Shown in pieces: positions 2,696 to 38,281 of a DNA stretch of 38,281 nt. This DNA comes from a virus (Duplodnaviria; Heunggongvirae; Uroviricota; Caudoviricetes). The notes beneath the pieces are model-generated. The model did not search any database, was not told the DNA's origin, and saw nothing but the letters and a program-made list of their open reading frames with translations. Position 1 is the first letter of the stretch, and each line of letters opens with the position of its first letter. The stretch spans positions 1-38,281 of IMG/VR virus record IMGVR_UViG_2737471992_000010. The stretch is one strand, 5' to 3'. The position numbers were made by a program, and so were the translations under genes.

Positions 2696-3086
2696 CGTCT
2701 TTTCTCCCCGGAATTAACTCGCGTGGATTATCGGAACGGTGATAGAGCCAGATGCCAATACGCACGGCGACAATTGCTGACACGAATGCGCCTGCAGAGA
2801 AAACAATCCCTTTTTCAAAAGAGTCCTGCGTGATGGTAGGGATCAGGCTGGCTATGCCGATAAGAATTGATGCTGCTGGTTTGTAAAAGAGAAGGCCGCA
2901 AAGAAAGCTGAGCATCGACAGGAGCACCCGGCGACGGATGGGGTACTCTACTGCAGAGGTAACAAAAATTACCGCCCCAGCCAAAGCCCCTAAAGCAACC
3001 TCCGGAGGGACACCTGCAATAACCGCAGCAAGAGAACTAACACTAAGCCACTGATTTGAAGTTTCATTGGTTAGTTGGAATGACAT
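2682..3086 (-). CDS. Putative holin
   Basis: 134 aa, three predicted transmembrane segments, first gene of the lysis cassette directly downstream of the tail fiber gene. Confidence 0.55.
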   Translation of the reverse strand: MSFQLTNETSNQWLSVSSLAAVIAGVPPEVALGALAGAVIFVTSAVEYPIRRRVLLSMLSFLCGLLFYKPAASILIGIASLIPTITQDSFEKGIVFSAGAFVSAIVAVRIGIWLYHRSDNPRELIPGRKDDGNA

Positions 3087-3158: not shown

Positions 3159-5621
3159 TCAATTCCCTGTTAATTGCAAAACTTGCTCTTCCAGCTTTTT
3201 AACCCTGCGTCTCATCATCGCAGATTCCAGAATCAGAGCCTCTTCATAACGGATACCGTAACATTCACCAGCCTCGACGGCTTCGCGTACCAGAACCTTT
3301 GTCTGTATAAGTGGGTAAACTCCTGCAGAATGCTCTTCTTCCGTCACATCCCTGTATTCTGCCGGGGTCTCATTCCACTTGTCATAACAGATAAATGCCA
3401 GTCGTGACACATCTATGCCTTCATTCTGAAATACACTGATAACATGCTGCGCAACTGCACCAAAGTGCCATCTTGCTCCGTCTTTACCTTTCACTTCGAT
3501 CCTGTCAAGGTACTGGTATGAAACCCATTCCACTCTTTCCCATGCGTCCAGTATTTTCTCATCAATAACCTCTGGAGCAGTCTTGAAACGCGCATCGGAC
3601 AGCACCGTAAACGCTGACTGGGTAAATCCCCCCGACCATGCACGACCAGCCAACCCAAGAGAATAAGTATTCGTTGTCGATGGTGTCATGGCTGAATCAG
3701 AAAACTGTATATATTCTGAATTTCCAGTAGATATTCGAATATTTCCATTTATTAGCGACATAGTGCCTTTAGTATTATCACTATTGAATAATTTCAATTG
3801 CGAACTTATACCGCCTCCCACAGCCAGAGATACATCGCCTTCAGCAAGCATTCTGAATTTATCTGCAGAAACAAGCGTCTGGTTAGCAAGGTTAAAATAT
3901 TTAACCCACCATTCAAAACGCCCTGACATAGTCCCAACGTACTGACCAAGCGCAGGGACGTGAACAACATTGCTATTTGTAGTGCCGTCTATACTGGAAA
4001 TACCAGTCACCGCTGATGCAGAACTCAGAATATTATTTCTGTCACCCGGATGTTTAATTTCAACAAAGTTCCTGATACACCCTTCCTCGAAGGTAACCAC
4101 GCCGGAAGAACTATACATGGGGAATATTGACGCATAATTACTGCGTGCAGCATCTAAGAAACGAATGGTTGTAGATGTCTGCAGATCTCCTGATTCATTT
4201 TTCCCATCACACCCAGTCATTAGAATATTACTGGCAATATTATTATTTCCCTGAACGGTGACTCCGTGCGCCTGCTTTGCGTCCGATTCAGAGTAATCAA
4301 CCAGCACATTCGAAATCAGGTTACCAGTCCCCTTGCCAACAACTACTGCGGCGTATTTTGGGTTGTTAGCCATTACACTGCTAATGATATTATTCGTTGG
4401 GGCAGTTTCCGTCTCAGTTCCATTGTAAACAACGTGCTGACACTCTTCACCAATAACATTGCTGACAATGTTATATTTTGCTGCTGTTTTAAGTTCCACT
4501 GCACCAAACTGAGGATAATTTCTGGCTATCACACCATCAATTAGCGTATTTTGCGATGAATCAAAAAGCACACAACCTGCTTTTTTATTATTTGCGAACC
4601 CTAAATACTCTCCTCTTATATCTCTAACAATGTAACCTGACGGAATACCATTATTCGGATAAGCGATCAAGCTAAATCCTGTTCCTCGCGTATTTGTAAA
4701 TCTGATATTTTTAACCGATACATCATGGCCACCTGAAAATGACACCTGGTGTCCCTGCACACTATCATCTGATTTATTTCCCATAATTGTTAGCGTACTA
4801 AGCATGCCACCATCGGGCATGTTAAAAACCAGATGATTACCATCTCTGTCATACTGTTTTATCGTTCCCCCACCTGTTCCGTACAAGCCACAACGTGAAA
4901 GAGAAACTAAAGATGTATTGAATACCCCTTCCGGAACAAAAACACTGCTAAACGAATGTAATGATTTTGTAAAAGCATCCTTGTTATCATTTAAGATTCC
5001 ATTTTGAGCTCCAAAATCCTTAATGCTGACACCATCACGCATCTTATCCTGGAACGTTCTGTATACCGCTCCAGAACCATACTGAATAAACCAACCAAAA
5101 CCACCAATAACTCCGGCGATTGCAGCATCGACATAATTACGCATTGAGCGATTATTTACAGCGTCCTGCTCAAGTGATGGATCGGCAAGGTTAGATATTC
5201 TGTTTTGCTTTGCATCGTAATATTTTGCAAGCAAAGATGGTTTCATCAATGCACGTCTGAACCACCCAAAACATCGCTGGATCAGCATCGTCAGGTAGTC
5301 AAATGCATCCTCATGAACTTCGGGGAAAAATTTTCCCTGATTGCGAAGATCAGTCTCCTGCACCACATCAAGCACACGCTCTATCGTGATTCGCCAGCCA
5401 GCAGCAAGCGGCGACGGAAGAACCACTGCACCGCCACTATAAGTTCCCGCCCCTGTTACCGTATAACCAGCATCCAGCACTAGTTTTGTAACGTTACCGT
5501 TAAGGTCAGACACCTGAACAACCAGGTCGGATTTTTTGAAAATACGGAAGGTATACGGAAATGATGTCGTAACGCCGTTACCTGTGTATTCGTTGTGGTC
5601 AACTTCGGTTGAGACCGTCAT
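3159..5621 (-). CDS. Tail fiber/tailspike: T7 gp17-like N-terminal adaptor, beta-helix (depolymerase-like) body, C-terminal self-cleaving intramolecular chaperone (peptidase S74-like)
   Basis: 820 aa; N-terminus EYTGNGVTTSFPYTFRIF...LVVQV resembles the T7 tail fibre N-terminal domain; central Gly/Asn/Ser-rich repeats typical of right-handed beta-helix; C-terminal segment with SDARFK motif and coiled-coil tail characteristic of the endosialidase-type chaperone domain. Confidence 0.85.
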   Translation of the reverse strand: MTVSTEVDHNEYTGNGVTTSFPYTFRIFKKSDLVVQVSDLNGNVTKLVLDAGYTVTGAGTYSGGAVVLPSPLAAGWRITIERVLDVVQETDLRNQGKFFPEVHEDAFDYLTMLIQRCFGWFRRALMKPSLLAKYYDAKQNRISNLADPSLEQDAVNNRSMRNYVDAAIAGVIGGFGWFIQYGSGAVYRTFQDKMRDGVSIKDFGAQNGILNDNKDAFTKSLHSFSSVFVPEGVFNTSLVSLSRCGLYGTGGGTIKQYDRDGNHLVFNMPDGGMLSTLTIMGNKSDDSVQGHQVSFSGGHDVSVKNIRFTNTRGTGFSLIAYPNNGIPSGYIVRDIRGEYLGFANNKKAGCVLFDSSQNTLIDGVIARNYPQFGAVELKTAAKYNIVSNVIGEECQHVVYNGTETETAPTNNIISSVMANNPKYAAVVVGKGTGNLISNVLVDYSESDAKQAHGVTVQGNNNIASNILMTGCDGKNESGDLQTSTTIRFLDAARSNYASIFPMYSSSGVVTFEEGCIRNFVEIKHPGDRNNILSSASAVTGISSIDGTTNSNVVHVPALGQYVGTMSGRFEWWVKYFNLANQTLVSADKFRMLAEGDVSLAVGGGISSQLKLFNSDNTKGTMSLINGNIRISTGNSEYIQFSDSAMTPSTTNTYSLGLAGRAWSGGFTQSAFTVLSDARFKTAPEVIDEKILDAWERVEWVSYQYLDRIEVKGKDGARWHFGAVAQHVISVFQNEGIDVSRLAFICYDKWNETPAEYRDVTEEEHSAGVYPLIQTKVLVREAVEAGECYGIRYEEALILESAMMRRRVKKLEEQVLQLTGN

Positions 5622-5724
5622 GTTAAATCTCCAGATAGTCGCAGCACCCGTTGCGCCGCATATCTGGTTATTCTATTACCTGAAAAACCATATATGGATA
5701 AAAAGACTATAAATACCAATAGAT

Positions 5725-5741
5725 ATTACCTTTCGGGTAAT
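5725..5741. promoter_or_regulatory. 17-bp palindromic operator-like site ATTACC-TTTCG-GGTAAT
   Basis: Perfect inverted repeat in the divergent region between the tail fiber start (5621) and the small antirepressor-like gene (5817). Confidence 0.6.
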
Positions 5742-5779
5742 TTGCAAAACGTGCTGGATAGCAAACAAATTATTTGTTA

Positions 5780-5795
5780 CTGTATAAACATACAG
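5780..5795. promoter_or_regulatory. LexA (SOS) box CTGT-N8-ACAG
   Basis: Sequence tacTGTATAAACATACAGtt: perfect CTGT / ACAG half-sites with an AT-rich 8-nt spacer, 22 nt upstream of the ATG at 5817 and overlapping a TATAAA -10-like hexamer. Confidence 0.65.
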
Positions 5796-5816
5796 TTATT
5801 GCATGGAGAAGATAAG

Positions 5817-6074
5817 ATGCAGCAGTATCACTATCCACTGGAAGACGGATTTACCGAAAGGATTCACACGCCGGGAGGCGTCAGGTCACTGGTGGAGGGA
5901 TCGCACTTGATGAAATTACTCCGGGATCTCGATAAGGATGGATTTAATGTCGATGGCCCACTTGCCGAACTGACTGCACTGATTAACTACGTCACCAGCT
6001 CACAGATGTCTATGCGGGATCTGCAAACACATCTCGACTATTGTGCCGAACAATTACGAAAACAAACCAGATAA
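5817..6074 (+). CDS. Small protein paralogous to the C-terminal domain of the antirepressor (candidate LexA-controlled antirepressor)
   Basis: 85 aa from the internal ATG with GGAGAA RBS; aligns with residues about 140-218 of the 6392..7048 product (PLEDGF.ERIHTPGGV..L.EGSHLM.LL..L...G..V.G..AELT....Y). The track ORF from 5694 is an upstream extension without RBS. Confidence 0.6.
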   Translation: MQQYHYPLEDGFTERIHTPGGVRSLVEGSHLMKLLRDLDKDGFNVDGPLAELTALINYVTSSQMSMRDLQTHLDYCAEQLRKQTR

Positions 6075-6104
6075 GGTTTGCAATTACCAAATGGAGTGCT
6101 TATA

Positions 6105-6121
6105 TTTACCTTTGCGGTAAA
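6105..6121. promoter_or_regulatory. 17-bp palindromic operator-like site TTTACC-TTTGC-GGTAAA
   Basis: Perfect inverted repeat, itself nested inside a longer inverted repeat GGAGTGC (6093-6099) / GCACTCC (6130-6136). Confidence 0.55.
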
Positions 6122-6211
6122 TTTACATCGCACTCCTCTTGTGCCATAGTAATCGGGCACTGGCAAAATCCAGTGCCGGGATTGGTCTCCCGGATTACTA
6201 AGTGGCGCATA

Positions 6212-6233
6212 CCACGCCAGACGTGGTTTTTTT
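6212..6233 (+). terminator. Weak terminator-like hairpin plus U-tract
   Basis: CCACG-CCAGA-CGTGG followed by seven T; lies downstream of GC-rich hairpins at 6156-6193. Confidence 0.35.
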
Positions 6234-6391
6234 ATGCGTATAGCACAGTCATGCCAGAATTATGGTGGGCTGAATGGGGGTCCGAAAGGACGCCGGTACC
6301 ACTTAGGCCGGTAAGACCAACTCCGTTCAGTTCACCACCATCTGATTGGTCTCAGCGGTGGTGATGTAATTCGCTAAGTGGAGACGCCATC

Positions 6392-7048
6392 ATGAACGCT
6401 CAACTCATCCCCGTATTCAACGGCACTATATCTAACGAAACAGCCCTACTTTGTAATGCCCGCGATCTGCACGCTTTTTTAGGTGTTAAAAAGGTGTTTG
6501 CAGCATGGATTACAAATCGCATATCAGAATACGAATTCATTGAAAATCAAGACTATATTTTGCTTTCCAATTTGGGAAAGCAAACATCTGGTAGAGGCGG
6601 CCACAACCGCAAAGAGTACCACCTCACCCTTGATACAGCCAAAGAGCTGGCGATGGTCGAGCGTAACGAAAAAGGTCGTCAGGTGCGACGCTACTTCATT
6701 GAATGCGAGAAACGTTTAAGACAACAAGAAACAAAAGTGGAGAAGGTCTTGTCAGGCTTCATGCCCGCCATTATGGAGGCGATCAAGCTGGAAGACAAAA
6801 AAGAATACAGCGCCCCACTGAAGCCCGGCTACCGCAGCCTGATTCATTCTCCGTCTGGTGTTCTCGGCCTGACGGAGAACTCACTGCTGATGAATCTGCT
6901 GAACAAGTTACAGGAAGACGGGCACGATGTATCGGGCGCGGCAGCGGAGCTGACCACCATGTTCTGCTACATCGTCGGTGTGAGCAAATGCCTGCGTGAT
7001 ATCCAGACCCACGCGGAGTACATCAACGACAAGGCAGGGTTCTTCTGA
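6392..7048 (+). CDS. Antirepressor (AntA-type N-terminal domain plus C-terminal domain)
   Basis: 218 aa; N-terminal region (VFNGT...[29 protein letters not shown]) resembles AntA/AntB antirepressor domains; GGAG RBS 10 nt upstream. Confidence 0.75.
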
Positions 7049-7119
7049 CGGGCGGTGGCACAGGGATGTGCCTTTAAATAATTCTGTACAGATTGCAGAC
7101 TGTGGGTGAATAGCGTACT

Positions 7120-7136
7120 ATTACCTTAAAGGTAAA
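7120..7136. promoter_or_regulatory. 17-bp palindromic operator-like site ATTACC-TTAAA-GGTAAA abutting the RBS of the 7148 gene
   Basis: Inverted repeat whose right edge overlaps the AGGAGG RBS (7136-7141) of the ORF starting at 7148. Confidence 0.55.
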
Positions 7137-7147
7137 GGAGGCGCGAT

Positions 7148-7312
7148 ATGACAGCGTTGAAAAATCGTACTCAGCACAATGAACAAGCAAAGCAATGCTG
7201 GGATGTCATTGGAAAAGTTATGCTTGGCCGCGCAAGCAAAGAGCGCGACAAGGATATGGTTTACCAGACAGGAACATCTTTCAGCGACTTCAAGGCGGCA
7301 TTTCGCTCCAAA
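7148..7312 (+). CDS. Small basic protein (55 aa), unknown function; not in the supplied ORF track
   Basis: ATG at 7148 preceded by AGGAGG at 6-nt spacing; translation MTALKNRTQHNEQAKQCWDVIGKVMLGRASKERDKDMVYQTGTSFSDFKAAFRSK; stop TAG at 7310-7312. Confidence 0.45.
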
Positions 7313-7335
7313 TAGAAGCACATCAGGAGTTTTCC

Positions 7336-7776
7336 TTGAAGTTTAACATTAGAATATCTAATAGTTTTCTACATGGGGAAAGCAACACCCCTTTCGCTGT
7401 AGACGGACCTTTCCTTACTGATGATGAAATAAAAATCATACAAAGTTTTTTAGAGGATGTTGCCAATGGAAGGGCGCTTGTTGGAAAAAACAAGCCCTCG
7501 TGGGTTGATGATAACCATGATAAAATTCCCGGCTCAGACAATTATGAGCAAGAGAATTATTGGCATTATCATTGTGGGCCAACATGGTATCCAAACACAT
7601 TTAAGAATTATACCATTAACTTAAATTTCAACCCTGGCGGAAGGCATTCTAATGAATGCATTCATTATGCAAAAAATGATAATGAAATTGTCATTGTTGG
7701 ATTTTCAAGAGAACACATACCTTTCCTTTCATCAGATGGAAACAACAATCCGCTTTTTAATGATGAAGAAGAATAG
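7336..7776 (+). CDS. AT-rich accessory gene of unknown function, about 146 aa, probable TTG start
   Basis: Long ORF with visibly lower GC than its surroundings; no in-frame ATG after 7195; AGGAG RBS (7325-7329) 6 nt before TTG 7336; acidic C-terminus NDEEE; followed by a strong terminator. Confidence 0.5.
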   Translation: MKFNIRISNSFLHGESNTPFAVDGPFLTDDEIKIIQSFLEDVANGRALVGKNKPSWVDDNHDKIPGSDNYEQENYWHYHCGPTWYPNTFKNYTINLNFNPGGRHSNECIHYAKNDNEIVIVGFSREHIPFLSSDGNNNPLFNDEEE

Positions 7777-12836: not shown

Positions 12837-15346
12837 TGCGGAATATCTCCGGAGAATCTCTGACGCTTCTGTGTCAGATCAAGAACAACGGGAGAACCAT
12901 CATCTTTTAGCAGATAACCAGTACCAAGTTTCACCAGGTACTGACTATCGCCGTAACTTTGCAAACCATACTGACCAGGCGGTGTTTTTATCCCTGTGCC
13001 AACAACTTGTTCATTCCAAGCCTGATTAACCTGCTTATCGAATTGCTCTGCAGACATTCCCCACGGCAAAAGAACATTCCCCATTCCGTTATAGTCATGC
13101 ACGCCACCTGTAGCTACGTTAACAGCCTGTTTCCAGATATCATTGTCAATTTCGCCTGATACCACGCCTTTTTTCGCCATCACACCAGCGTAATAGTCCT
13201 TTGCGATCTCGAATGCCATTGATGCCCCCTGAGCATCACCAGCAAATGCATCCTTCACCATGTCAGAAAACTCAAGGCGAAGATCAGCATCTTTAGGCAT
13301 CGGAATACCTTTCGCGTCATCAGTACCTTTACGAGCCGCCGCGCCAGCAAGAATTGTCTGCGCAGCGGTTTCTGGAGACACGGAAACATCCGGATTAAAC
13401 CAGTTTTTTTCTGCCAAAATACCACCTGGCTTATCCATCAGTATCCCGGCAACGGCAGCAGATGGAGCGTTGGCACTGATCTGCTGTAGTGCTGACATAT
13501 ACACCTGCCCACCACCAGTGCTCTGCCTGATGGTATCGAGATATGCTGCCTGTTGGGAAACGGGCGCATCACGAAAGAAAACACCGATCTGATTGGCCTC
13601 GTCTTTGGAAAAGAACGTCAGTGGAGTGCCATATGACTTAGCAAGGTCACTGACCTGAGCAGCACGCAAGGCAACGCTCTGTCCAAAGTTATCCTTATTG
13701 CTCATGTCGATAGGCTTTGCCTGTCCGGCGGCAAGAGAGAACTGCACAGGATCCGACTGCCGCTGCTTTATCACCTGATTTGCAGCCGAAACAACGTTGT
13801 CATAAAGAGCTGCGCGTGCCGCATACCCCTCCCCTGTCTCACCAGTATCCGGGCGTAATTGCTCAACATATGCTGTAATGCTGCTTGTCGGCATGTTGCG
13901 GAAAGAGCCTATATACTGTCCGGCGATCTGCGTATTTCTGAACTCGGTATATCGCAGGTTTCCTTCTCTGACGCCATAAGCTGCAATAAAATCAGCCTCA
14001 CCAGGTGGATTAGGAAATTCAACGCCACGCATATACGCAGCCGTCGCATCGCGAACCTGGCTGTCAATCATCGTTTTATATTCAGCCTGCTGCTGCCGAC
14101 GCAGTTGATCCGCCTGTCGCATATAACTTGCCTGCGCCTCAGGAGATGCCGCATCGAATGCTGCATTACCAGTATAGCGTTTGGTGTTGGTTGGAATTGT
14201 TGATAAACCAAGTGCTGCACTGACACCAGCAGTTAACTGCTGATCACTGTATGGCTGGCTACCGTTCTCATGATGGATAATGGCTGCACAAAGCGCCTTC
14301 AGGGTATCAGGATTTGATGCATCGAGAGGATCATCAGCAGAAACGCCAAGTTGTTCGCACACCGCTTTGATATACGACATAGTGTCATTTTTATCAGCAG
14401 GCGGTGCCCAGCGATTAATTATCTCGCTGACGGTATCAATACCCTGCCTCTGATACGACATCAGGTTCCGCCCTAATGCACGAATCCCGTGTTCAGGTGT
14501 TTCGAATTTAGCAAATCGACCATCATCACCGGTCTGGCCTACCCACGGATTAGTTTTGCTGTATTCGAGATTTCCTGGGTTATTGTTGCGTATGCCACGG
14601 GCACGCTCGGAAGAGTCACTATCTGCTACAGCACGGCGAGCTCCAGCAGCAGTATCACTTAACTCGCCATTACTTTGGATGAATGCGGTCGCATTGTTTG
14701 CCGACCACTGGGACAATGCAGCATCAGCAACCTTCTCTTTAAACTCGATTTTCTTGGCCTGGATTTGCTCGTTGCTCCAGCCATGTGCAACACCGTACTC
14801 CTCAATTTGCTGGAAAGTTTGCTTGTTAGCCAATACGTATGCGGCGTTGTCGCCATACAATGCTGCGGCATTTTTACCATTGTTCAGCAGTGTCGCCTGA
14901 AACTGGCCTTCTTCGTAGGCATTAATTTGCCCTATCTCGTGTCGCCCGGCCTGCGTAGTGAACTGAATGCGCTGCTGCTGCGCCTGCTGCATGAAAGCAT
15001 TACGAGCCTGTTCATCCGGCAGAGACATAGCCAGTTGTTCGACCTGAGCATCAAACTGCTGCGTATACTCATGGCCTTTTCCAATAGCATTTTTCCCTTT
15101 CAGGTTAAGCAATCCTGTTTCAGGATTATTCAGCAGATCGCTGCTTATCTGACTGAGGTTAAGAGATGCCTCCTGAGCCAGAGCGATATTGGCACGCTGT
15201 TTTGCCTGCCCCAAAACATCAATTGCCTCTGTCCCTGCCCGAACAAAAGCATCACCAATACCTTGCTGAGAAAACGTCTGCAAGCCTGCTGACTGAACTC
15301 CACGACTCTCAACCTGACGTCCGGATACTGTTGGTACGACTGGCAT
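12833..15346 (-). CDS. Internal virion protein with putative peptidoglycan-hydrolase motif (T7 gp15/gp16-like role)
   Basis: Start reassigned to the ATG at 15346 (GGAGG RBS, TAATG overlap with the upstream stop); contains RGIRNNNPGNLEY...NPWVG, a motif I associate with phage virion-borne lysozyme domains. Confidence 0.6.
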   Translation of the reverse strand: MPVVPTVSGRQVESRGVQSAGLQTFSQQGIGDAFVRAGTEAIDVLGQAKQRANIALAQEASLNLSQISSDLLNNPETGLLNLKGKNAIGKGHEYTQQFDAQVEQLAMSLPDEQARNAFMQQAQQQRIQFTTQAGRHEIGQINAYEEGQFQATLLNNGKNAAALYGDNAAYVLANKQTFQQIEEYGVAHGWSNEQIQAKKIEFKEKVADAALSQWSANNATAFIQSNGELSDTAAGARRAVADSDSSERARGIRNNNPGNLEYSKTNPWVGQTGDDGRFAKFETPEHGIRALGRNLMSYQRQGIDTVSEIINRWAPPADKNDTMSYIKAVCEQLGVSADDPLDASNPDTLKALCAAIIHHENGSQPYSDQQLTAGVSAALGLSTIPTNTKRYTGNAAFDAASPEAQASYMRQADQLRRQQQAEYKTMIDSQVRDATAAYMRGVEFPNPPGEADFIAAYGVREGNLRYTEFRNTQIAGQYIGSFRNMPTSSITAYVEQLRPDTGETGEGYAARAALYDNVVSAANQVIKQRQSDPVQFSLAAGQAKPIDMSNKDNFGQSVALRAAQVSDLAKSYGTPLTFFSKDEANQIGVFFRDAPVSQQAAYLDTIRQSTGGGQVYMSALQQISANAPSAAVAGILMDKPGGILAEKNWFNPDVSVSPETAAQTILAGAAARKGTDDAKGIPMPKDADLRLEFSDMVKDAFAGDAQGASMAFEIAKDYYAGVMAKKGVVSGEIDNDIWKQAVNVATGGVHDYNGMGNVLLPWGMSAEQFDKQVNQAWNEQVVGTGIKTPPGQYGLQSYGDSQYLVKLGTGYLLKDDGSPVVLDLTQKRQRFSGDIPQ

Positions 15347-24642: not shown

Positions 24643-24719
24643 GTGGCATTAGCTCAGTTGGACAGAGCAACCGCCTTCTAAGCGGTTGGTCGCAGGTTCG
24701 AATCCTGCATGCCACGCCA
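24643..24719 (+). tRNA. tRNA-Arg, anticodon UCU (reads AGA)
   Basis: Hand-folded cloverleaf: 7-bp acceptor stem GTGGCAT/ATGCCAC, D arm GCTC...GAGC, anticodon stem ACCGC/GCGGT with loop CTTCTAA, T arm GCAGG-TTCGAAT-CCTGC, discriminator G and encoded CCA. Confidence 0.9.
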
Positions 24720-24917
24720 GAATCACGCCTAAGGACCGTGATGCCAGAAGTTCCAGGGGCTTGGCGGTGATGGTTTCCCTTGAAGGACTATCACCGCCCT
24801 TTTTACAGCAGGACGCCATTGCGATGACTTCATGCTGTAAACCAGTACAGCCACGGAAGGCATAACTCATTGCTTCCAGTTCGCCCGGTTCGCCGGGCAT
24901 TTTTTTAAGGTGAGATT

Positions 24918-30980: not shown

Positions 30981-31325
30981 TCAGAACTCTTCGATGTTCC
31001 AGCCACCACCTGCTTTCTTTGGCTTAACCGTTACCCCGATGATTCGGAACGGATACTGATCTGCGGCGACTTTGGTTTTCACCCTGGCGTCGTCGGTCCA
31101 GAAACCTTTCACTTCGTGCAGTTCCATCTCGCCGGTGGCGAGCATCACAGCAAAATCGGGCGTATAGAACGTGTTGTCAGCTAACCGCAACTTGATACCC
31201 TCGAATCGATACCAGGCGATTTCCCCTGCACGTTTACGCTGCTCAAGGTGCTGGCAATACGCAGATTCTGTTTTGTTCATCTGGCCTGTTTTGAGTCGAC
31301 CAAGAGCCTGCATCTGTTTTCTCAT
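30981..31325 (-). CDS. DUF1064-family phage protein
   Basis: 114 aa; pattern NKTE..Y...LE..K.AGEI..Y.FE.IKL.LA...YTPDF.V...GE.E.HEVKG typical of DUF1064 proteins found next to phage replication genes. Confidence 0.6.
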   Translation of the reverse strand: MRKQMQALGRLKTGQMNKTESAYCQHLEQRKRAGEIAWYRFEGIKLRLADNTFYTPDFAVMLATGEMELHEVKGFWTDDARVKTKVAADQYPFRIIGVTVKPKKAGGGWNIEEF

Positions 31326-31327
31326 GA

Positions 31328-31406
31328 TTTACCCATGAGGTAATTAAAAACCACATAAGACACGAAATCAATAGATCTTAGAACATTTTATTACCTAGCA
31401 GGTAAT
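31328..31406. promoter_or_regulatory. Two 17-bp palindromic operator-like sites (31328-31344 TTTACC-CATGA-GGTAAT; 31390-31406 ATTACC-TAGCA-GGTAAT)
   Basis: Both inverted repeats lie in the 117-bp gap between the P stop and the DUF1064 start; the first abuts the DUF1064 start codon. Confidence 0.55.
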
Positions 31407-31442
31407 TATCAAGACGTAAAAAAATGCGCTATCGCGCTGGTA

Positions 31443-32243
31443 TTACTTGATAAATCCTGCCGCCTTTCCCCGCCTGTATTCCTCCATCAGCCACTGCGCC
31501 GGTGTTATTCCCCCCAGGGTAGCGGCGTTAGGCATACACCCGAAACTTCGCCCTGGTGGATGGTAAACGTCTCTCCCTGTGTCCGGAGGCGTACTCATGG
31601 GTTCTGGCTTTGCCTGTATGCTGATCACCGGATCGGGTATCTGCTGTCCGGAAGCCACCTTTTTCGCCCAATCATCAAGCAGCCTGCGCGCGTGTTTCTC
31701 AACCTCAATCTCGCTAAGCTGGCGCTGATACATTGCACGGCGGGTATCACATACGACCCAGTACATAACCGGATGCCGCCACGGGAATCTTTCGGGACCA
31801 CCAGGATATAAACTTTTTTCCTTGCTGTACCGGTGAAACTCCGCCATCACATCGTCAATGGTGACGCCAAGAACCATCTTGCTGTCTTTACACCACTTGA
31901 TAAATTGCCCTGGCGACGGCCAGAACGGAGATTCACTGGCGCGGGCGTGGCGCATACCAGCAGAAACCTGTTCACGGGTTCGGATCCCCCCTTCGGCAAA
32001 CGCAGCAATCCACTGCTGTTTTGCAGCAACTTCCTGCTCTGGCGTCTTCAGGTTGGTTACCACTGCCGCCGGAAACAGTTGTTTCAACTGTTTGAAAAGG
32101 GCATCAACAAGCCTCTCTGCTGACATGTTCACTACGTTGTCATTGTTGGTGTACTGATGCTCATAACCTGACATGCGAGAAAGGGCTTCTCCGTCACGGT
32201 TTTGTATCGCGGTAAAAACGTTGTTCACAAGAAATCCTCCCAT
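31443..32243 (-). CDS. Replication protein P-like (helicase loader)
   Basis: Segment GMRHARASESPFWPSPGQFIKWC matches lambda P GMRVARRQNRPFLPSPGQFVAWC; start may be the internal ATG at 32174. Confidence 0.75.
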   Translation of the reverse strand: MGGFLVNNVFTAIQNRDGEALSRMSGYEHQYTNNDNVVNMSAERLVDALFKQLKQLFPAAVVTNLKTPEQEVAAKQQWIAAFAEGGIRTREQVSAGMRHARASESPFWPSPGQFIKWCKDSKMVLGVTIDDVMAEFHRYSKEKSLYPGGPERFPWRHPVMYWVVCDTRRAMYQRQLSEIEVEKHARRLLDDWAKKVASGQQIPDPVISIQAKPEPMSTPPDTGRDVYHPPGRSFGCMPNAATLGGITPAQWLMEEYRRGKAAGFIK

Positions 32244-33040
32244 GCTTCAGGGCTGTTCCAGTGCGGAACGTTGTTATCAGGTAATGTTGATTGCTTCTGT
32301 CTGCTAATCTGCAGCCGCCTTGCCAGCTTCTGCTCCCACTGTGCCTGATGGTATGCCCTACCCTCAGCCATCCAGTAAATTCTGAACTCTGCAAGTTCCT
32401 GTGCCGTTGGCAGACTGTCCAGGTAGATCCCCTGCAATGAGCTTTTCCGAAGAAAGTCATCTGATGGCTGCCATTGTTCATGCATGACAAATTTGCCTAA
32501 TTGCCCTGGCCCACCAGGAGGAACAAAGTTATTCATCACGGCGTTGTTTGCGCCGGGGTCATGATGCACAGAATCCCCGTTTTTTGTCCTGCTCTCCCTC
32601 TCTTGGTTAAATGACTGGTTATATGACTGGTTCTGGATCCCGTTTTTGGGATCATTCAACATCCCGTTTTTGGGATCATTCAACATCCCGTTTTTGGGTA
32701 TATTCCCGTTTTCGGGAACATTACCGTTTTCGGGTTCATTACCCCCTTCCCGGTTGCCTTTAATGTTCCCGTTTTTGGTTATATTAAGAGAGAAAACCCG
32801 CACTCTTTTCGTCGCTCCCTTTCTCTCTCCGGTATCTGAAATAAGCCCCATTTTCATGAGCGATATAAGCCCGGCCTGCACGGTTTTTTTATTCAGGCAA
32901 GTGTCTTTAACGAGGCGTTCTATGCTGGGGTAGCAGAGGTTATATTCATCGGCTCTGTCAGCCATCGAGAGCAGTATGAGCTTTAATGACGAGCTACCTG
33001 GATCTGTCTCCCAGGCCCAATCTGTTGCATGTCTGCTCAT
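32225..33040 (-). CDS. Replication initiator O-like protein with ori iterons inside the gene
   Basis: 271 aa; N-terminal HTH-like region, central NG/PENG/PKNG peptide repeats encoded by DNA iterons; immediately upstream of the P-like gene as in lambda O-P. Confidence 0.7.
   Translation of the reverse strand: MSRHATDWAWETDPGSSSLKLILLSMADRADEYNLCYPSIERLVKDTCLNKKTVQAGLISLMKMGLISDTGERKGATKRVRVFSLNITKNGNIKGNREGGNEPENGNVPENGNIPKNGMLNDPKNGMLNDPKNGIQNQSYNQSFNQERESRTKNGDSVHHDPGANNAVMNNFVPPGGPGQLGKFVMHEQWQPSDDFLRKSSLQGIYLDSLPTAQELAEFRIYWMAEGRAYHQAQWEQKLARRLQISRQKQSTLPDNNVPHWNSPEAWEDFL
32637..32781. repeat. Origin iterons: 5-6 copies of ATCCCGTTTTTGGGAT-like inverted repeat at about 24-bp spacing, followed by an AT-rich stretch
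   Basis: Perfect copies at 32637-32652 and 32661-32676; degenerate copies at 32685-32700, 32703-32718, 32721-32736 and about 32766-32781; AT-rich atattaagagagaaaa follows. Confidence 0.75.
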
Positions 33041-33406: not shown

Positions 33407-33637
33407 TCATGAGTAGAAGAAGTATGCCAGTTCTGCTTTTGAGCGCAGCCATTGTCTTGATTTACAGGCTTTAAAAAGCCCATTCATCAATACCTTACCT
33501 GGCATTTTGCGCTTACCTGTTAAGTGAGTCTGGATATAGTGACTCGTCGTTCCGGCTTCCTGTGCGAAGGCTTCACGCTCATCCGGAGTAAGTGCAAGCC
33601 AGTGCTTTTTGAAATCGAAATGTCCGTTATCGCTCAT
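33407..33637 (-). CDS. Cro/CII-like HTH regulator
   Basis: 76 aa; HTH-like segment FAQEAGTTSHYIQTHLTGKR; transcribed divergently from the repressor gene across the operator cluster. Confidence 0.5.
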   Translation of the reverse strand: MSDNGHFDFKKHWLALTPDEREAFAQEAGTTSHYIQTHLTGKRKMPGKVLMNGLFKACKSRQWLRSKAELAYFFYS

Positions 33638-33672: not shown

Positions 33673-33737
33673 TTCACCTATAAGGTAACAAAAATCAAGG
33701 ATAGTTACCCATGAGGTGCATTTACCTGTTGGGTAAT
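33673..33737. promoter_or_regulatory. OR-like operator cluster: three 17-bp sites (33673-33689 TTCACC-TATAA-GGTAAC; 33704-33720 GTTACC-CATGA-GGTGCA; 33721-33737 TTTACC-TGTTG-GGTAAT)
   Basis: Three tandem copies of the palindrome in the 154-bp divergent region between the Cro-like gene (start 33637) and the repressor gene (start 33792). Confidence 0.6.
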
Positions 33738-33791
33738 ATTGCTTTAAATTGAATCATCTTCTGATTCAGATATGAGGCGATTTTCCAGAAA

Positions 33792-34376
33792 ATGAAAAGT
33801 ATCCAGGACGTCCGCAGGCAAAATCTCAACGACTTGATCGACCGTGAATTCAATGGTGTTCAGACGCGGATGGCTGAAAAACTTGGAACTCAGGCAAATC
33901 TGGTAAACCGCTGGGCTCTTGGCAAGAAGGTTATCGGCGACCAGGTTGCGCGAAAAATTGAAGCTGCCGCCAATAAACCCCGTAACTGGCTTGATATCGA
34001 TCGCTCGCTTTCTCAGGAAGGTTTTCAGCCTGTCGGACCAAGCGACATTGGTCAACTGGCGGCTCACAACCTGGAACGCTGGATGAGCGAAAGCCGCGAC
34101 CTTTCAACGCAGGGAAAACTTCACCGCGCATCCGGCGTCGCCCAGGTAACAATCAGCCGCCTGTTAAACAATGAGGTCAGCGTTTCCATTTCCACCCTGG
34201 AGAATGTTGCATCCGCATTTGGGCGTCACGGATATGAATTACTGATTCACCCGCACGACCCCGCGACTATCAACTATGACCGCTCGCGCTACGCATTGTT
34301 ACCTGAAACAGAGAAGGCAAAGATCGAAAGTTACATTGAATTTGTCATCAACCAGAACGAAAAAAACAAACAATAA
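33792..34376 (+). CDS. Prophage repressor with two HTH (XRE-type) domains and no peptidase S24 domain
   Basis: 194 aa; two HTH-like segments (QTRMAEKLGTQANLVNRWALGKK and HRASGVAQVTISRLLNNEVS); no Ala-Gly/Ser-Lys autocleavage module; sits between OR-like and OL-like operator clusters. Confidence 0.65.
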   Translation: MKSIQDVRRQNLNDLIDREFNGVQTRMAEKLGTQANLVNRWALGKKVIGDQVARKIEAAANKPRNWLDIDRSLSQEGFQPVGPSDIGQLAAHNLERWMSESRDLSTQGKLHRASGVAQVTISRLLNNEVSVSISTLENVASAFGRHGYELLIHPHDPATINYDRSRYALLPETEKAKIESYIEFVINQNEKNKQ

Positions 34377-34432: not shown

Positions 34433-34511
34433 ATTACCTAACGGGTAATTTTTTTAACTCATATCTATTGACATCAAACCAGATACGCATAATTATTACC
34501 TCAACGGTAAC
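34433..34511 (+). promoter_or_regulatory. PL-like promoter with two flanking operator sites (34433-34449 ATTACC-TAACG-GGTAAT; 34495-34511 ATTACC-TCAAC-GGTAAC)
   Basis: Consensus -35 TTGACA at 34468-34473, -10-like AATTAT about 17 nt later overlapping the second palindrome; GAGG RBS and ATG at 34530 follow. Confidence 0.55.
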
Positions 34512-37447: not shown

Positions 37448-38090
37448 GAAATACACACTAATCTATGCAGATCCACCCTGGGTATACCGGGACAAAGCCG
37501 CAGATGGTAATCGCGGTGCCGGTTTTAAATATCCGGTTATGAGTGTGCTGGATATCTGCCGCCTTCCTGTGTGGGATTTGGCCGATGAAAACTGTCTGTT
37601 GGCCATGTGGTGGGTGCCAACACAACCACTCGAAGCACTAAAAGTTGTTGAGGCCTGGGGATTCCGTCTGATGACCATGAAGGGATTCACGTGGATAAAA
37701 TGTGGTAGTCGACAACCAGATAAACTGGTTATGGGTATGGGGCACATGACTCGCGCCAATAGTGAAGATTGCCTGTTTGCAGTTAAGGGAAAACTACCTA
37801 CGCGCATTAATGCAGGGATCGTTCAGTCATTTACCGCACCGCGGCTTGAGCATTCAAGAAAACCAGATGTCGTTCGTGAAAAACTTGTGCAATTGTTAGG
37901 CGATGTTTCTCGCATTGAACTGTTCGCCCGCCAGTCGTCTCATGGCTTCGATGTTTGGGGTAATCAGTGCGAAGACCCGGCCGTGCAACTACACCCAGGA
38001 TACGCGTTGGATATTGGCGGATTAACAAATGCATTCAGCAATGCTCCGCTGTCACCAACAGACAACCAGGGACGGGAGCGTGCAGCATGA
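37440..38090 (+). CDS. DNA N6-adenine methyltransferase, MT-A70 family (orphan)
   Basis: 216 aa from MTKKYTLIYADPPW; catalytic DPPW motif near the N-terminus as in MT-A70 phage methylases; no restriction partner nearby. Confidence 0.7.
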   Translation: MTKKYTLIYADPPWVYRDKAADGNRGAGFKYPVMSVLDICRLPVWDLADENCLLAMWWVPTQPLEALKVVEAWGFRLMTMKGFTWIKCGSRQPDKLVMGMGHMTRANSEDCLFAVKGKLPTRINAGIVQSFTAPRLEHSRKPDVVREKLVQLLGDVSRIELFARQSSHGFDVWGNQCEDPAVQLHPGYALDIGGLTNAFSNAPLSPTDNQGRERAA

Positions 38091-38281
38091 ACAGGGCATC
38101 ACCTGCAGATTTAAGGAAATGCCTTGAAACTGCAAACATGCTTGCACATAGTGGGATCAGGTTTGTTCCAATTCCCGCTGTCACTGATGATGAATTTGCA
38201 ACGCTGTCAGCAATATTCGCAGACAAAATTGAATCACTGGCAGCAGAAGCAGAGATGGAAGAAAATCAGCAGAATAATTAA
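38087..38281 (+). CDS. Small hypothetical protein (64 aa)
   Basis: ATG overlaps the methylase stop (ATGA); ends with TAA exactly at the window edge. Confidence 0.4.
   Translation: MNRASPADLRKCLETANMLAHSGIRFVPIPAVTDDEFATLSAIFADKIESLAAEAEMEENQQNN

Follow-up and report, generated by a model that had tools for sequence, protein, structure and literature searches.

The window analysed here comprises positions 1 to 38,281 of the IMG/VR virus record IMGVR_UViG_2737471992_000010 (Caudoviricetes). It carries two neighbouring antirepressor genes, a small gene (ant) encoding 85 amino acids (aa) and a large gene (ant218) encoding 218 aa, as well as the gene for a prophage repressor, Rep. We consider it likely that the two antirepressor genes belong to a tandem in which an SOS switch of the type known from Salmonella phage SPC32H (module 1) is followed by a cassette of the type found in the immI regions of phages P1 and P7 (module 2), the two modules having one repressor-targeting domain in common. 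The core SOS mechanism is already established for SPC32H, a phage of the same genus, and the locus is best described as two known kinds of system placed in tandem. Neither such a tandem of two modules nor the occurrence of differing specificities of the C4 antisense RNA among phages with identical Rep is described in the papers searched.

Predicted SOS control of the small antirepressor

The product of the small gene matches the antirepressor in the crystal structure of the SPC32H complex (PDB 5d50_E, 'Anti-repressor protein'; E 1.4e-46, residues 2-84) and is 86.7% identical to SPC32H Ant; in 5D50 the 86-aa Ant is by itself the Rep-binding protein. The small Ant of the window has no family in Pfam, NCBIfam or PADLOC, belongs to PHROG 450, which is labelled 'unknown function', and bears the RefSeq name 'hypothetical protein'. 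The arrangement around the gene is that of SPC32H, in which ant is also divergent from the tailspike gene and preceded by a TTACC-N5-GGTAA palindrome and then a LexA box. In the window, a perfect CTGT-N8-ACAG core (CTGTATAAACATACAG, 5780-5795) lies within a predicted LexA box, TACTGTATAAACATACAGTT, which matches the consensus TACTGTATATATATACAGTA at 17 of 20 positions, is unique in the window and was found in 0 of 100 shuffles. The box ends 21 nt before the ATG of ant at 5817, and a GGAG Shine-Dalgarno motif is located at 5805-5808. Seven genera have the box conserved before the small gene, and its position is kept in more than 15 loci, the arms being conserved and the spacer bases variable in phages and prophages of Escherichia, Salmonella, Enterobacter, Citrobacter, Erwinia and Scandinavium; Klebsiella and Superficieibacter have ATGT..ACAG instead of CTGT..ACAG.

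A point mutation in the LexA site overlapping the ant promoter of SPC32H reportedly gives rise to a constitutively lytic variant, SPC32N. According to a review citing Kim and Ryu 2013, self-cleavage of LexA leads to production of the SPC32H antirepressor, which inhibits the repressor by protein-protein interaction; the tetrameric Ant is described in review as binding two Rep dimers and breaking the Rep tetramer, and the C-terminal domain of SPC32H Rep is reported to be the Ant-binding part.

The repressor and its predicted operators

Rep is a full-length homolog of SPC32H Rep (PDB 5d50_A, 'Repressor'; E 4e-42, residues 1-190). The Pfam search returned HTH_3 at residues 106-147, a weak Cro/YdaS-like helix-turn-helix at 21-61 and no Peptidase_S24 match, and the C-terminal half is of the HTH_3 type and homologous to 5d4z_A. 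Identity to SPC32H Rep, encoded at 33739-34335 in that phage, is 41.8% overall (N-terminal domain 52%, C-terminal domain 38%). Rep is 100% identical to its counterparts in phiV10, ZX5 and phiv142-3, and the Rep proteins of the window phage, ZX5, phiV10 and TL-2011b are 98.5-100% identical. Rep occurs in 37 phage records and Ant in 35, and the two sets are essentially the same.

The motif TTACC-N5-GGTAA occurs in the window at ten perfect sites, or 14 with at most one mismatch, versus 0.48 expected; SPC32H has 18 sites with at most one mismatch. Operon starts and both flanks of rep carry such sites, often in pairs 18-62 bp apart, and together they probably represent the Rep operator set. One of them, the palindrome at 5725-5741, lies in the space separating ant from the divergent tailspike gene, whose start is 105 bp away; all relatives keep a palindrome of this type at -89/-91, its 5-nt spacer being variable. 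The site at 5725-5741 is most probably an operator of the Rep encoded by this phage, since the motif recurs at rep and at operon starts, the equivalent palindrome sites in the epsilon15 RefSeq record are annotated as protein_bind 'repressor; lysogeny', and the recognition-helix motif NLVNRW is conserved in the N-terminal domain of Rep. The idea that it is the operator of a foreign or second repressor was rejected because the motif recurs at rep and genome-wide. In the second operator, at 6106-6120, the TTACC and GGTAAAT halves are invariant and the spacer is variable, and the site abuts the -35 element of the isrK promoter described below in 11 of 11 aligned enterobacterial loci. These two sites, 380 bp apart, bracket the small gene. 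Judging from motif and position, LexA and Rep probably both act in this region.

Much of this had been anticipated by an earlier note on the same DNA, made from its sequence alone. The perfect CTGT-N8-ACAG core and the palindrome are where that note had placed them, and the repressor indeed has two helix-turn-helix domains and no S24 match. Its prediction of SOS induction through a LexA-controlled antirepressor, and not through repressor cleavage, gains support by analogy with the homologous Ant/Rep pair of SPC32H. Its suggestion that two repressors converge on ant is likewise in keeping with the epsilon15-type repressor site and would hold if LexA and Rep both act there.

An RNA cassette upstream of the large antirepressor

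The 317 bp between the small and the large gene contain two RNA family matches, an isrK-like leader and a C4-type antisense RNA (Table 1), which together are the predicted control of the 218-aa gene. The -10 of a promoter-like element ends 7 nt before the 5' end of the isrK match at 6157, and a c4-a1b1 match (RF03163, 6144-6196) that overlaps isrK scores 39.9 bits, below threshold. The leader carries the target repeats a1 (GATTGGTCTC, 6180-6189) and b1 (CTAAGTGG, 6198-6205) and has an intrinsic terminator consisting of a stem at 6211-6227 plus a T-run. The same repeats recur exactly as a2 and b2 downstream of C4, where b2 overlaps the GGAG Shine-Dalgarno (6380-6383) of the large gene; the C4 loops b' (CCACUUAG, 6299-6306) and a' (AGACCAA, 6314-6320) are complementary to these repeats. 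No conserved open reading frame (ORF) was found in 6234-6391, and the ATG of ant218 directly follows a2/b2.

Ten other loci with a second antirepressor downstream of small ant also have isrK and C4 matches. Loci with both include those of phiV10, ZX5, TL-2011b, Tyrion, three Klebsiella elements, C. werkmanii, Erwinia dacicola, Superficieibacter and Scandinavium, and in a Nitrosomonas locus the two matches lie just upstream of an Ant-domain match. The epsilon15 and C. braakii loci gave no isrK or C4 hits in Rfam. In SPC32H, a terminator directly after ant is followed by the next gene, with no isrK/C4/large-ant cassette, and epsilon15 also has a terminator directly after ant; the window has no terminator-like site between the small ant stop (6074) and the isrK terminator (6211-6233).

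Twelve loci display four types of a (GGTCT, GGCGT, GAGAC, GGAAG) and four types of b (AAGTGG, AAAAGG, ACAAAGG, AAACGG). The upstream repeats a1/b1, the C4 loops and the downstream repeats a2/b2 change together, with a three-way covariation score of 0.377 versus 0.129 in shuffles (0.377 reached in 0 of 500) and of at most 0.09 when the partners were slid. Pairing amounts to 90.5% in the a'-a2 helix and to 96.4% in the a1-a' helix, and in each of them four of seven pairs are changed on both sides. The outer three b-helix pairs are misaligned by indels in alignment A4 and were counted as unpaired, and we relied on the a helices and the 5-bp b core. Phages whose Rep proteins are 98.5-100% identical (window, ZX5, phiV10 and TL-2011b) differ in both C4 specificities and in the N-terminal domain of the large antirepressor. 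The window phage has GGTCT as a and AAGTGG as b, against GGCGT and AAAAGG in ZX5 and phiV10.

Both RNAs are unannotated in the phage records examined. ZX5 has a coding sequence (CDS) for a 37-aa 'ash family protein' (2955-3068) annotated over its C4 RNA; in the window the frame that opens at this ATG (6263) stops after only two further codons, and the ZX5 annotation is probably a mis-call.

A shared domain in several architectures

The large protein matches AntA (PF08346) at residues 22-92 with 91.8 bits (cut-off 27), a match that covers its N-terminal part only. The 85-aa product aligns with residues 137-210 at 43% identity over 74 aa without gaps (E 6e-21). Residues 1-129 are 81% identical to Ant of an Stx2a phage, the nucleotide match starting at about 6388-6400, around the start codon, and residues 97-218 are 73.6% identical to the Bro-N antirepressors of ZX5 and TL-2011b, with the Ant-like domain (~137-218) nearly identical as read from the sequences. 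The 218-aa protein is a mosaic and the derived form. When ORF4 of ZX5, a protein with the same C-terminal domain from a phage with identical Rep, was overexpressed, the prophage titre fell from 1e9 to 1e6; ZX5 is inducible by mitomycin C. The ZX5 paper counts three lysogeny-related proteins, the small Ant not among them, and leaves LexA, SPC32H and C4 unmentioned.

A profile search of 1.8 billion representative proteins yielded 70 clusters with the Ant domain, mostly stand-alone proteins of 80-100 aa. In the longer members the domain is C-terminal, behind AntA, Bro-N, Phage_pRha (Rha) or ORF6N; P22_AR_N in TL-2011b is a fifth N-terminal domain that precedes it. The stand-alone form of 85-86 aa is the commonest, and the only one in SPC32H, epsilon15 and C. 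braakii, and the small gene of the window is the canonical stand-alone Ant. The earlier note had correctly aligned the small product with the C-terminal domain of its AntA-type neighbour, and its proposal that this domain is the repressor-binding module is supported by the 86-aa Ant in 5D50 and by the recurrence of the domain behind five N-terminal domains, which points to a repressor-directed function. Its view that a LexA-controlled gene consisting of the C-terminal domain only is unusual was mistaken, as it is the 218-aa fusion that is derived. The SOS logic, the shared module and the convergence of two repressors can be retained from its overall reading; the isrK-like and C4 RNAs predicted to control the 218-aa gene had been overlooked.

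Further arrangements of the domain were encountered. Of the three Ant-domain copies in TL-2011b, one follows a LexA box, one a C4 RNA and one an Arc-like repressor gene; the last is a 314-aa P22_AR_N antirepressor (31060-32244) that ends in the same Ant-like C-terminal domain. Other E. coli prophages with identical Rep (L020, 5677-6651; L010, 1365-2125) carry an AntA::Ant-domain gene beside integrase and guaA, behind a match to sRNA-Xcc1 (RF02221), not C4. The sequence ACTTCAAAG is repeated in this sRNA-Xcc1-type leader and at the ribosome-binding site of the AntA::Ant gene, and a Stx2a phage has the same RNA before its AntA antirepressor; the leader may exert an analogous antisense control. 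Two 84-aa stand-alone Ant proteins (P0115 and P0119) have an N-terminal half of the small-Ant type and a C-terminal half of the type of the large protein's C-terminal domain, and look like recombinants of the two paralogs from which the RNA cassette was deleted.

Tentatively, and with somewhat less than even confidence, we regard the SPC32H-Ant fold as a portable Rep-targeting domain that epsilon15-like phages have placed under LexA, an exchangeable C4, an sRNA-Xcc1-type leader or an Arc-like repressor. Its RNA-controlled copy could be an immI weapon in the style of P1/P7 with which a superinfecting phage overrides the Rep immunity of a resident relative, because phages with nearly identical Rep differ in their C4/target specificities and N-terminal domains, and SOS read-through from small ant could couple the two modules.

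Proposed mechanism and alternative explanations

The homologies, motifs, RNA family matches and covariation described above were observed in the window, and the experiments on which the following scheme draws were carried out in relatives only (SPC32H, P1, Gifsy-1 and ZX5). In a lysogen, host LexA bound at 5778-5797 would keep the 85-aa Ant off, and DNA damage would lead to self-cleavage of LexA and production of small Ant. By homology with SPC32H, an Ant tetramer would then bind the C-terminal domains of Rep, break the Rep tetramer and free the TTACC-N5-GGTAA operators, and release of Rep would result in lytic growth, Rep itself remaining uncleaved. Module 2 would have been inserted after ant, with a promoter whose -35 abuts a Rep-type operator transcribing the isrK-like leader with its a1, b1 and terminator; read-through past this terminator would extend the transcript into C4 and the large gene. 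Pairing of the C4 loops with a2 and b2 would cover the ribosome-binding site and leave the large Ant untranslated as long as a matching C4 is present. The large protein may then be an accessory factor for anti-immunity or reinforcement, produced if C4 is missing, exceeded in number by leader RNA or of differing specificity. The last case would arise, for instance, on superinfection of a cell that harbours a relative with the same Rep and another C4 type.

Several points weigh against this scheme. A consensus scan revealed no sigma-70-like promoter upstream of small ant, and hand-fitted -35/-10 pairs in that region were all weak, such that no promoter is named. The operator upstream of ant would speak against control by LexA alone if it represses ant rather than the divergent tailspike gene. 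Identity to the SPC32H counterpart is 87% for small Ant, yet only 38% for the Ant-binding C-terminal domain of Rep, so that an Ant-Rep interaction is plausible but the same binding as in SPC32H is not guaranteed. Either Ant recognises a few conserved residues, or ant and rep evolve as separate mosaic modules. In phiV10 the large gene (3395-4074) has been divided into p23 and p22, the frameshift or deletion responsible lying within the Ant-like domain, and because it is broken there and absent from SPC32H and epsilon15, the gene is dispensable. An AlphaFold2 model of the 218-aa protein built from a 21-sequence alignment was discarded (mean predicted local distance difference test score 39.5). 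The Gifsy-1 cassette discussed below needs orf45, an upstream ORF translationally coupled to the antirepressor, which has no conserved counterpart in the window. Finally, we infer the binding of LexA and Rep at these sites, the binding of Rep by the large Ant and the biological role of the latter, and likewise binding and expression in this phage generally, from sequence comparison.

The alternatives concern either the switch itself or the part played by the large protein. That CTGT-N8-ACAG is a chance palindrome without LexA function is hardly credible: the motif does have two other matches in the window, apparently within coding sequence (three in total versus 0.55 expected), but the consensus match of the full box and its absence from shuffles, its kept position over a variable spacer and the orthology of the gene to the LexA-regulated ant of SPC32H speak for a genuine site. 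It is more conceivable, though still improbable, that a different phage regulator, for example the 76-aa Cro-like protein encoded at 33407..33637, binds the palindromes, that at 5725-5741 among them, or that they act only on the tailspike promoter; ant would then not be a point of convergence for Rep and LexA. Sharing of operators between Cro-type and CI-type proteins is common, the palindrome at 5725-5741 lies between divergent genes close to the tailspike start, and the epsilon15 record has an IHF site adjoining it. On the other hand, sites that flank rep on both sides and occur at many operon starts are as expected of a maintenance repressor and are annotated as repressor sites in epsilon15, and the same motif abuts the isrK promoter, where there is no divergent gene. 

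As to the two proteins, the 85-aa gene could be an unusual mini copy, reduced to the C-terminal domain, of a full-length neighbour that is the principal antirepressor. The two share a domain and the large one alone is annotated as antirepressor in most records; this explanation is nevertheless very unlikely and is already contradicted by the family distribution, as the stand-alone form is the crystallised, functional SPC32H Ant, dominates the family and is the sole form in three of the relatives named above, whereas the large forms are mosaics with swapped N-terminal domains and the large gene is frameshifted in phiV10. A less remote, if still rather unlikely, alternative is that the large antirepressor is mainly a feed-forward amplifier, in which SOS read-through and an isrK promoter opened by loss of Rep deliver surplus a1/b1 leader that titrates C4, and Ant218 locks the switch. 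The lack of a terminator between small ant and the isrK leader would allow a feed-forward role, and SPC32H and epsilon15 differ here in having one directly after ant; moreover, a Rep-type operator abuts the isrK promoter, and in Gifsy-1 IsrK activates antirepressor translation in trans. However, a purely cis-acting amplifier gives no reason for the diversification of C4 and its targets among phages with identical Rep, the large gene is dispensable in relatives, and C4 is co-transcribed with its target. In favour of an anti-immunity role of module 2 are the combination of near-identical Rep proteins with differing C4 specificities and N-terminal domains and the dispensability of the gene.

Phage context and distribution

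Identity over region 5400-7400 is 98.3% with Escherichia phage phiv142-3 and about 90% with phiV10 and the O157 typing phages. These are all epsilon15-like podoviruses of the genus Uetakevirus, and the window itself is read as an E. coli prophage of this kind. Its gene order is lysis genes, tailspike, ant locus, structural genes, rep and early-left operon. The window starts (1-1071) with genes for a glycine-zipper lipoprotein and a DUF5384 protein, a pair that also follows Rz in the TL-2011b record and is probably host flank, and stops (38090-38281) in the early-left operon at an MT-A70 methylase, before the integrase; it looks like an integrated prophage lacking its integrase end. A tRNA-Arg(UCU) gene is located at 24643-24719. 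A CTGT-N8-ACAG match at 24835-24850 (CTGTAAACCAGTACAG) is probably not a LexA site, because of its location within an ORF and its less AT-rich spacer; TL-2011b has the same match as a reverse complement at 14289.

Downstream of the large gene, the 55-aa ORF behind the third operator matches phrog_8607 and a further ORF matches phrog_5954, both of unknown function; the ORFs at 7148-7776 gave no Pfam, NCBIfam or PADLOC match. The equivalent slot of TL-2011b holds a YafO-family toxin pair. The region looks like a cargo slot and may be under Rep control.

Of 5,426 complete E. coli genomes, 79 (~1.5%) contain the 1.4-kb locus with a coverage of at least 80%; a scan of genome contigs gave eight loci, and the comparative set is modest. 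The SOS switch of this prophage family, which includes phiV10 and the O157 typing phages, goes unreported because the small Ant is without a family label, the RNAs are unannotated and in ZX5 a CDS covers C4.

Table 1 Features of the ant locus, rep and the predicted Rep operators in the window
Feature	Position	Strand	Details
Tailspike gene	3159..5621	minus	Divergent from small ant
Predicted Rep-type operator, ATTACCTTTCGGGTAAT	5725..5741	.	ATTACC-N5-GGTAAT; 91 bp upstream of small ant start
LexA (SOS) box, TACTGTATAAACATACAGTT	5778..5797	.	Core at 5780-5795; predicted site
Small antirepressor gene ant, 85 aa	5817..6074	+	Ortholog of SPC32H Ant
Second Rep-type operator, TTACCTTTGCGGTAA	6106..6120	.	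Abuts -35 of isrK promoter
Promoter-like element	6122..6150	+	TTTACA-17-(TG)CATAGT; for isrK-C4-ant218 transcript; conserved in alignments A3 and A4
isrK-like leader RNA	6157..6233	+	Rfam RF01394, 67.7 bits (gathering score 50)
C4-type antisense RNA	6258..6342	+	Rfam RF01695, 61.2 bits (gathering score 45); predicted fold -41.2 kcal/mol
Downstream C4 targets	6344..6383	+	a2 GATTGGTCTC, 6344-6353; b2 CTAAGTGG, 6374-6381
Large antirepressor gene, 218 aa	6392..7048	+	AntA N-domain (22-92) and SPC32H-Ant-like C-domain (~137-213)
Third Rep-type operator, TTACCTTAAAGGTAA	7121..7135	.	Just upstream of Shine-Dalgarno and ATG of 55-aa ORF (7148..7315)
Rep-type operator cluster	33674..33736	.	Between rep and divergent cro-like gene; 33674 one mismatch, 33722 perfect
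Prophage repressor gene rep, 194 aa	33792..34376	+	Two helix-turn-helix-type domains; PDB and Pfam matches
Rep-type operator pair	34434..34510	.	Flanks TTGACA...CATAAT promoter; just after rep terminator
Perfect TTACC-N5-GGTAA sites	5726, 6106, 7121, 24306, 27451, 31329, 31391, 33722, 34434, 34496		
One-mismatch TTACC-N5-GGTAA sites	5494, 27433, 33337, 33674		

Comparison with known systems

Among the closest known systems is the Rep/Ant pair of SPC32H (Kim & Ryu 2013; Kim et al. 2016; PDB 5D50, 5D4Z), a phage of the same genus with an 87% identical Ant, a Rep homologous over its full length, and a LexA box and upstream TTACC-N5-GGTAA palindrome at the same positions before an ant gene divergent from tailspike. 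It differs from the window in that its Rep is only 42% identical and that a terminator follows ant in place of the isrK/C4/large-ant cassette. The logic of a non-cleavable repressor and an antirepressor behind an SOS box is also that of the LexA-controlled antirepressors of Gifsy and Fels-2 and of Tum of phage 186 (Lemire et al. 2011, PMC3121763; Shearwin et al. 1998), although the phage type is different and the small Ant has no Tum-like match in Pfam, NCBIfam and PDB searches. RecA-cleavable repressors of the lambda CI/LexA type have an S24 peptidase domain, whereas none was matched in Rep.

In the isrK-orf45-anrP region of Gifsy-1, as in the window, isrK has its own terminator and read-through leads to a processed RNA (STnc1160; C4 in the window) and then to an antirepressor-like gene. 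The Gifsy-1 antirepressor mRNA is transcribed but translationally silent until IsrK is supplied in trans, which raises translation 139-fold (Hershko-Shalev et al. 2016, PMC4825925). In contrast to the window, the target there is AntQ and Gifsy-1 induction, and no LexA-controlled small Ant lies upstream. The immI region of P22 (mnt/arc/ant) resembles the locus in being a region of secondary immunity whose antirepressor adjoins the tailspike gene, and is further linked to it by TL-2011b with its Arc-like repressor and its P22_AR_N antirepressor ending in the Ant-like domain. The window is without arc or mnt, and control would be exerted by LexA and C4 RNA instead.

The second module has the design of the immI operon of P1 and P7 (c4-icd-ant1/2). 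The P1 operon is repressed by C1 and also subject to C4 RNA, which blocks ant translation at the ribosome-binding site, and C4 differences underlie the heteroimmunity of P1 and P7. The window shares with it the C4 match, the a1/b1 and a2/b2 repeats complementary to the C4 loops, the position of b2 over a ribosome-binding site and the existence of specificity variants among phages with interchangeable main repressors. The conserved Rep-type palindrome that abuts the -35 may be the counterpart of the main-repressor operator beside the P1 operon promoter. It differs in having no icd-like ORF, so that C4 would target the antirepressor's own ribosome-binding site, in an antirepressor composed of AntA and an SPC32H-Ant-like domain, in a leader with an isrK-type terminator, and in being a podovirus integrated at guaA, not a plasmid myovirus. 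If the tandem works as proposed, these podoviruses would have a bipartite immunity like those of P1 and P22, made up of Rep and a C4-controlled antirepressor, with a LexA sensor in addition, and the natural C4 variants over identical Rep would make such immunity directly testable by superinfection.

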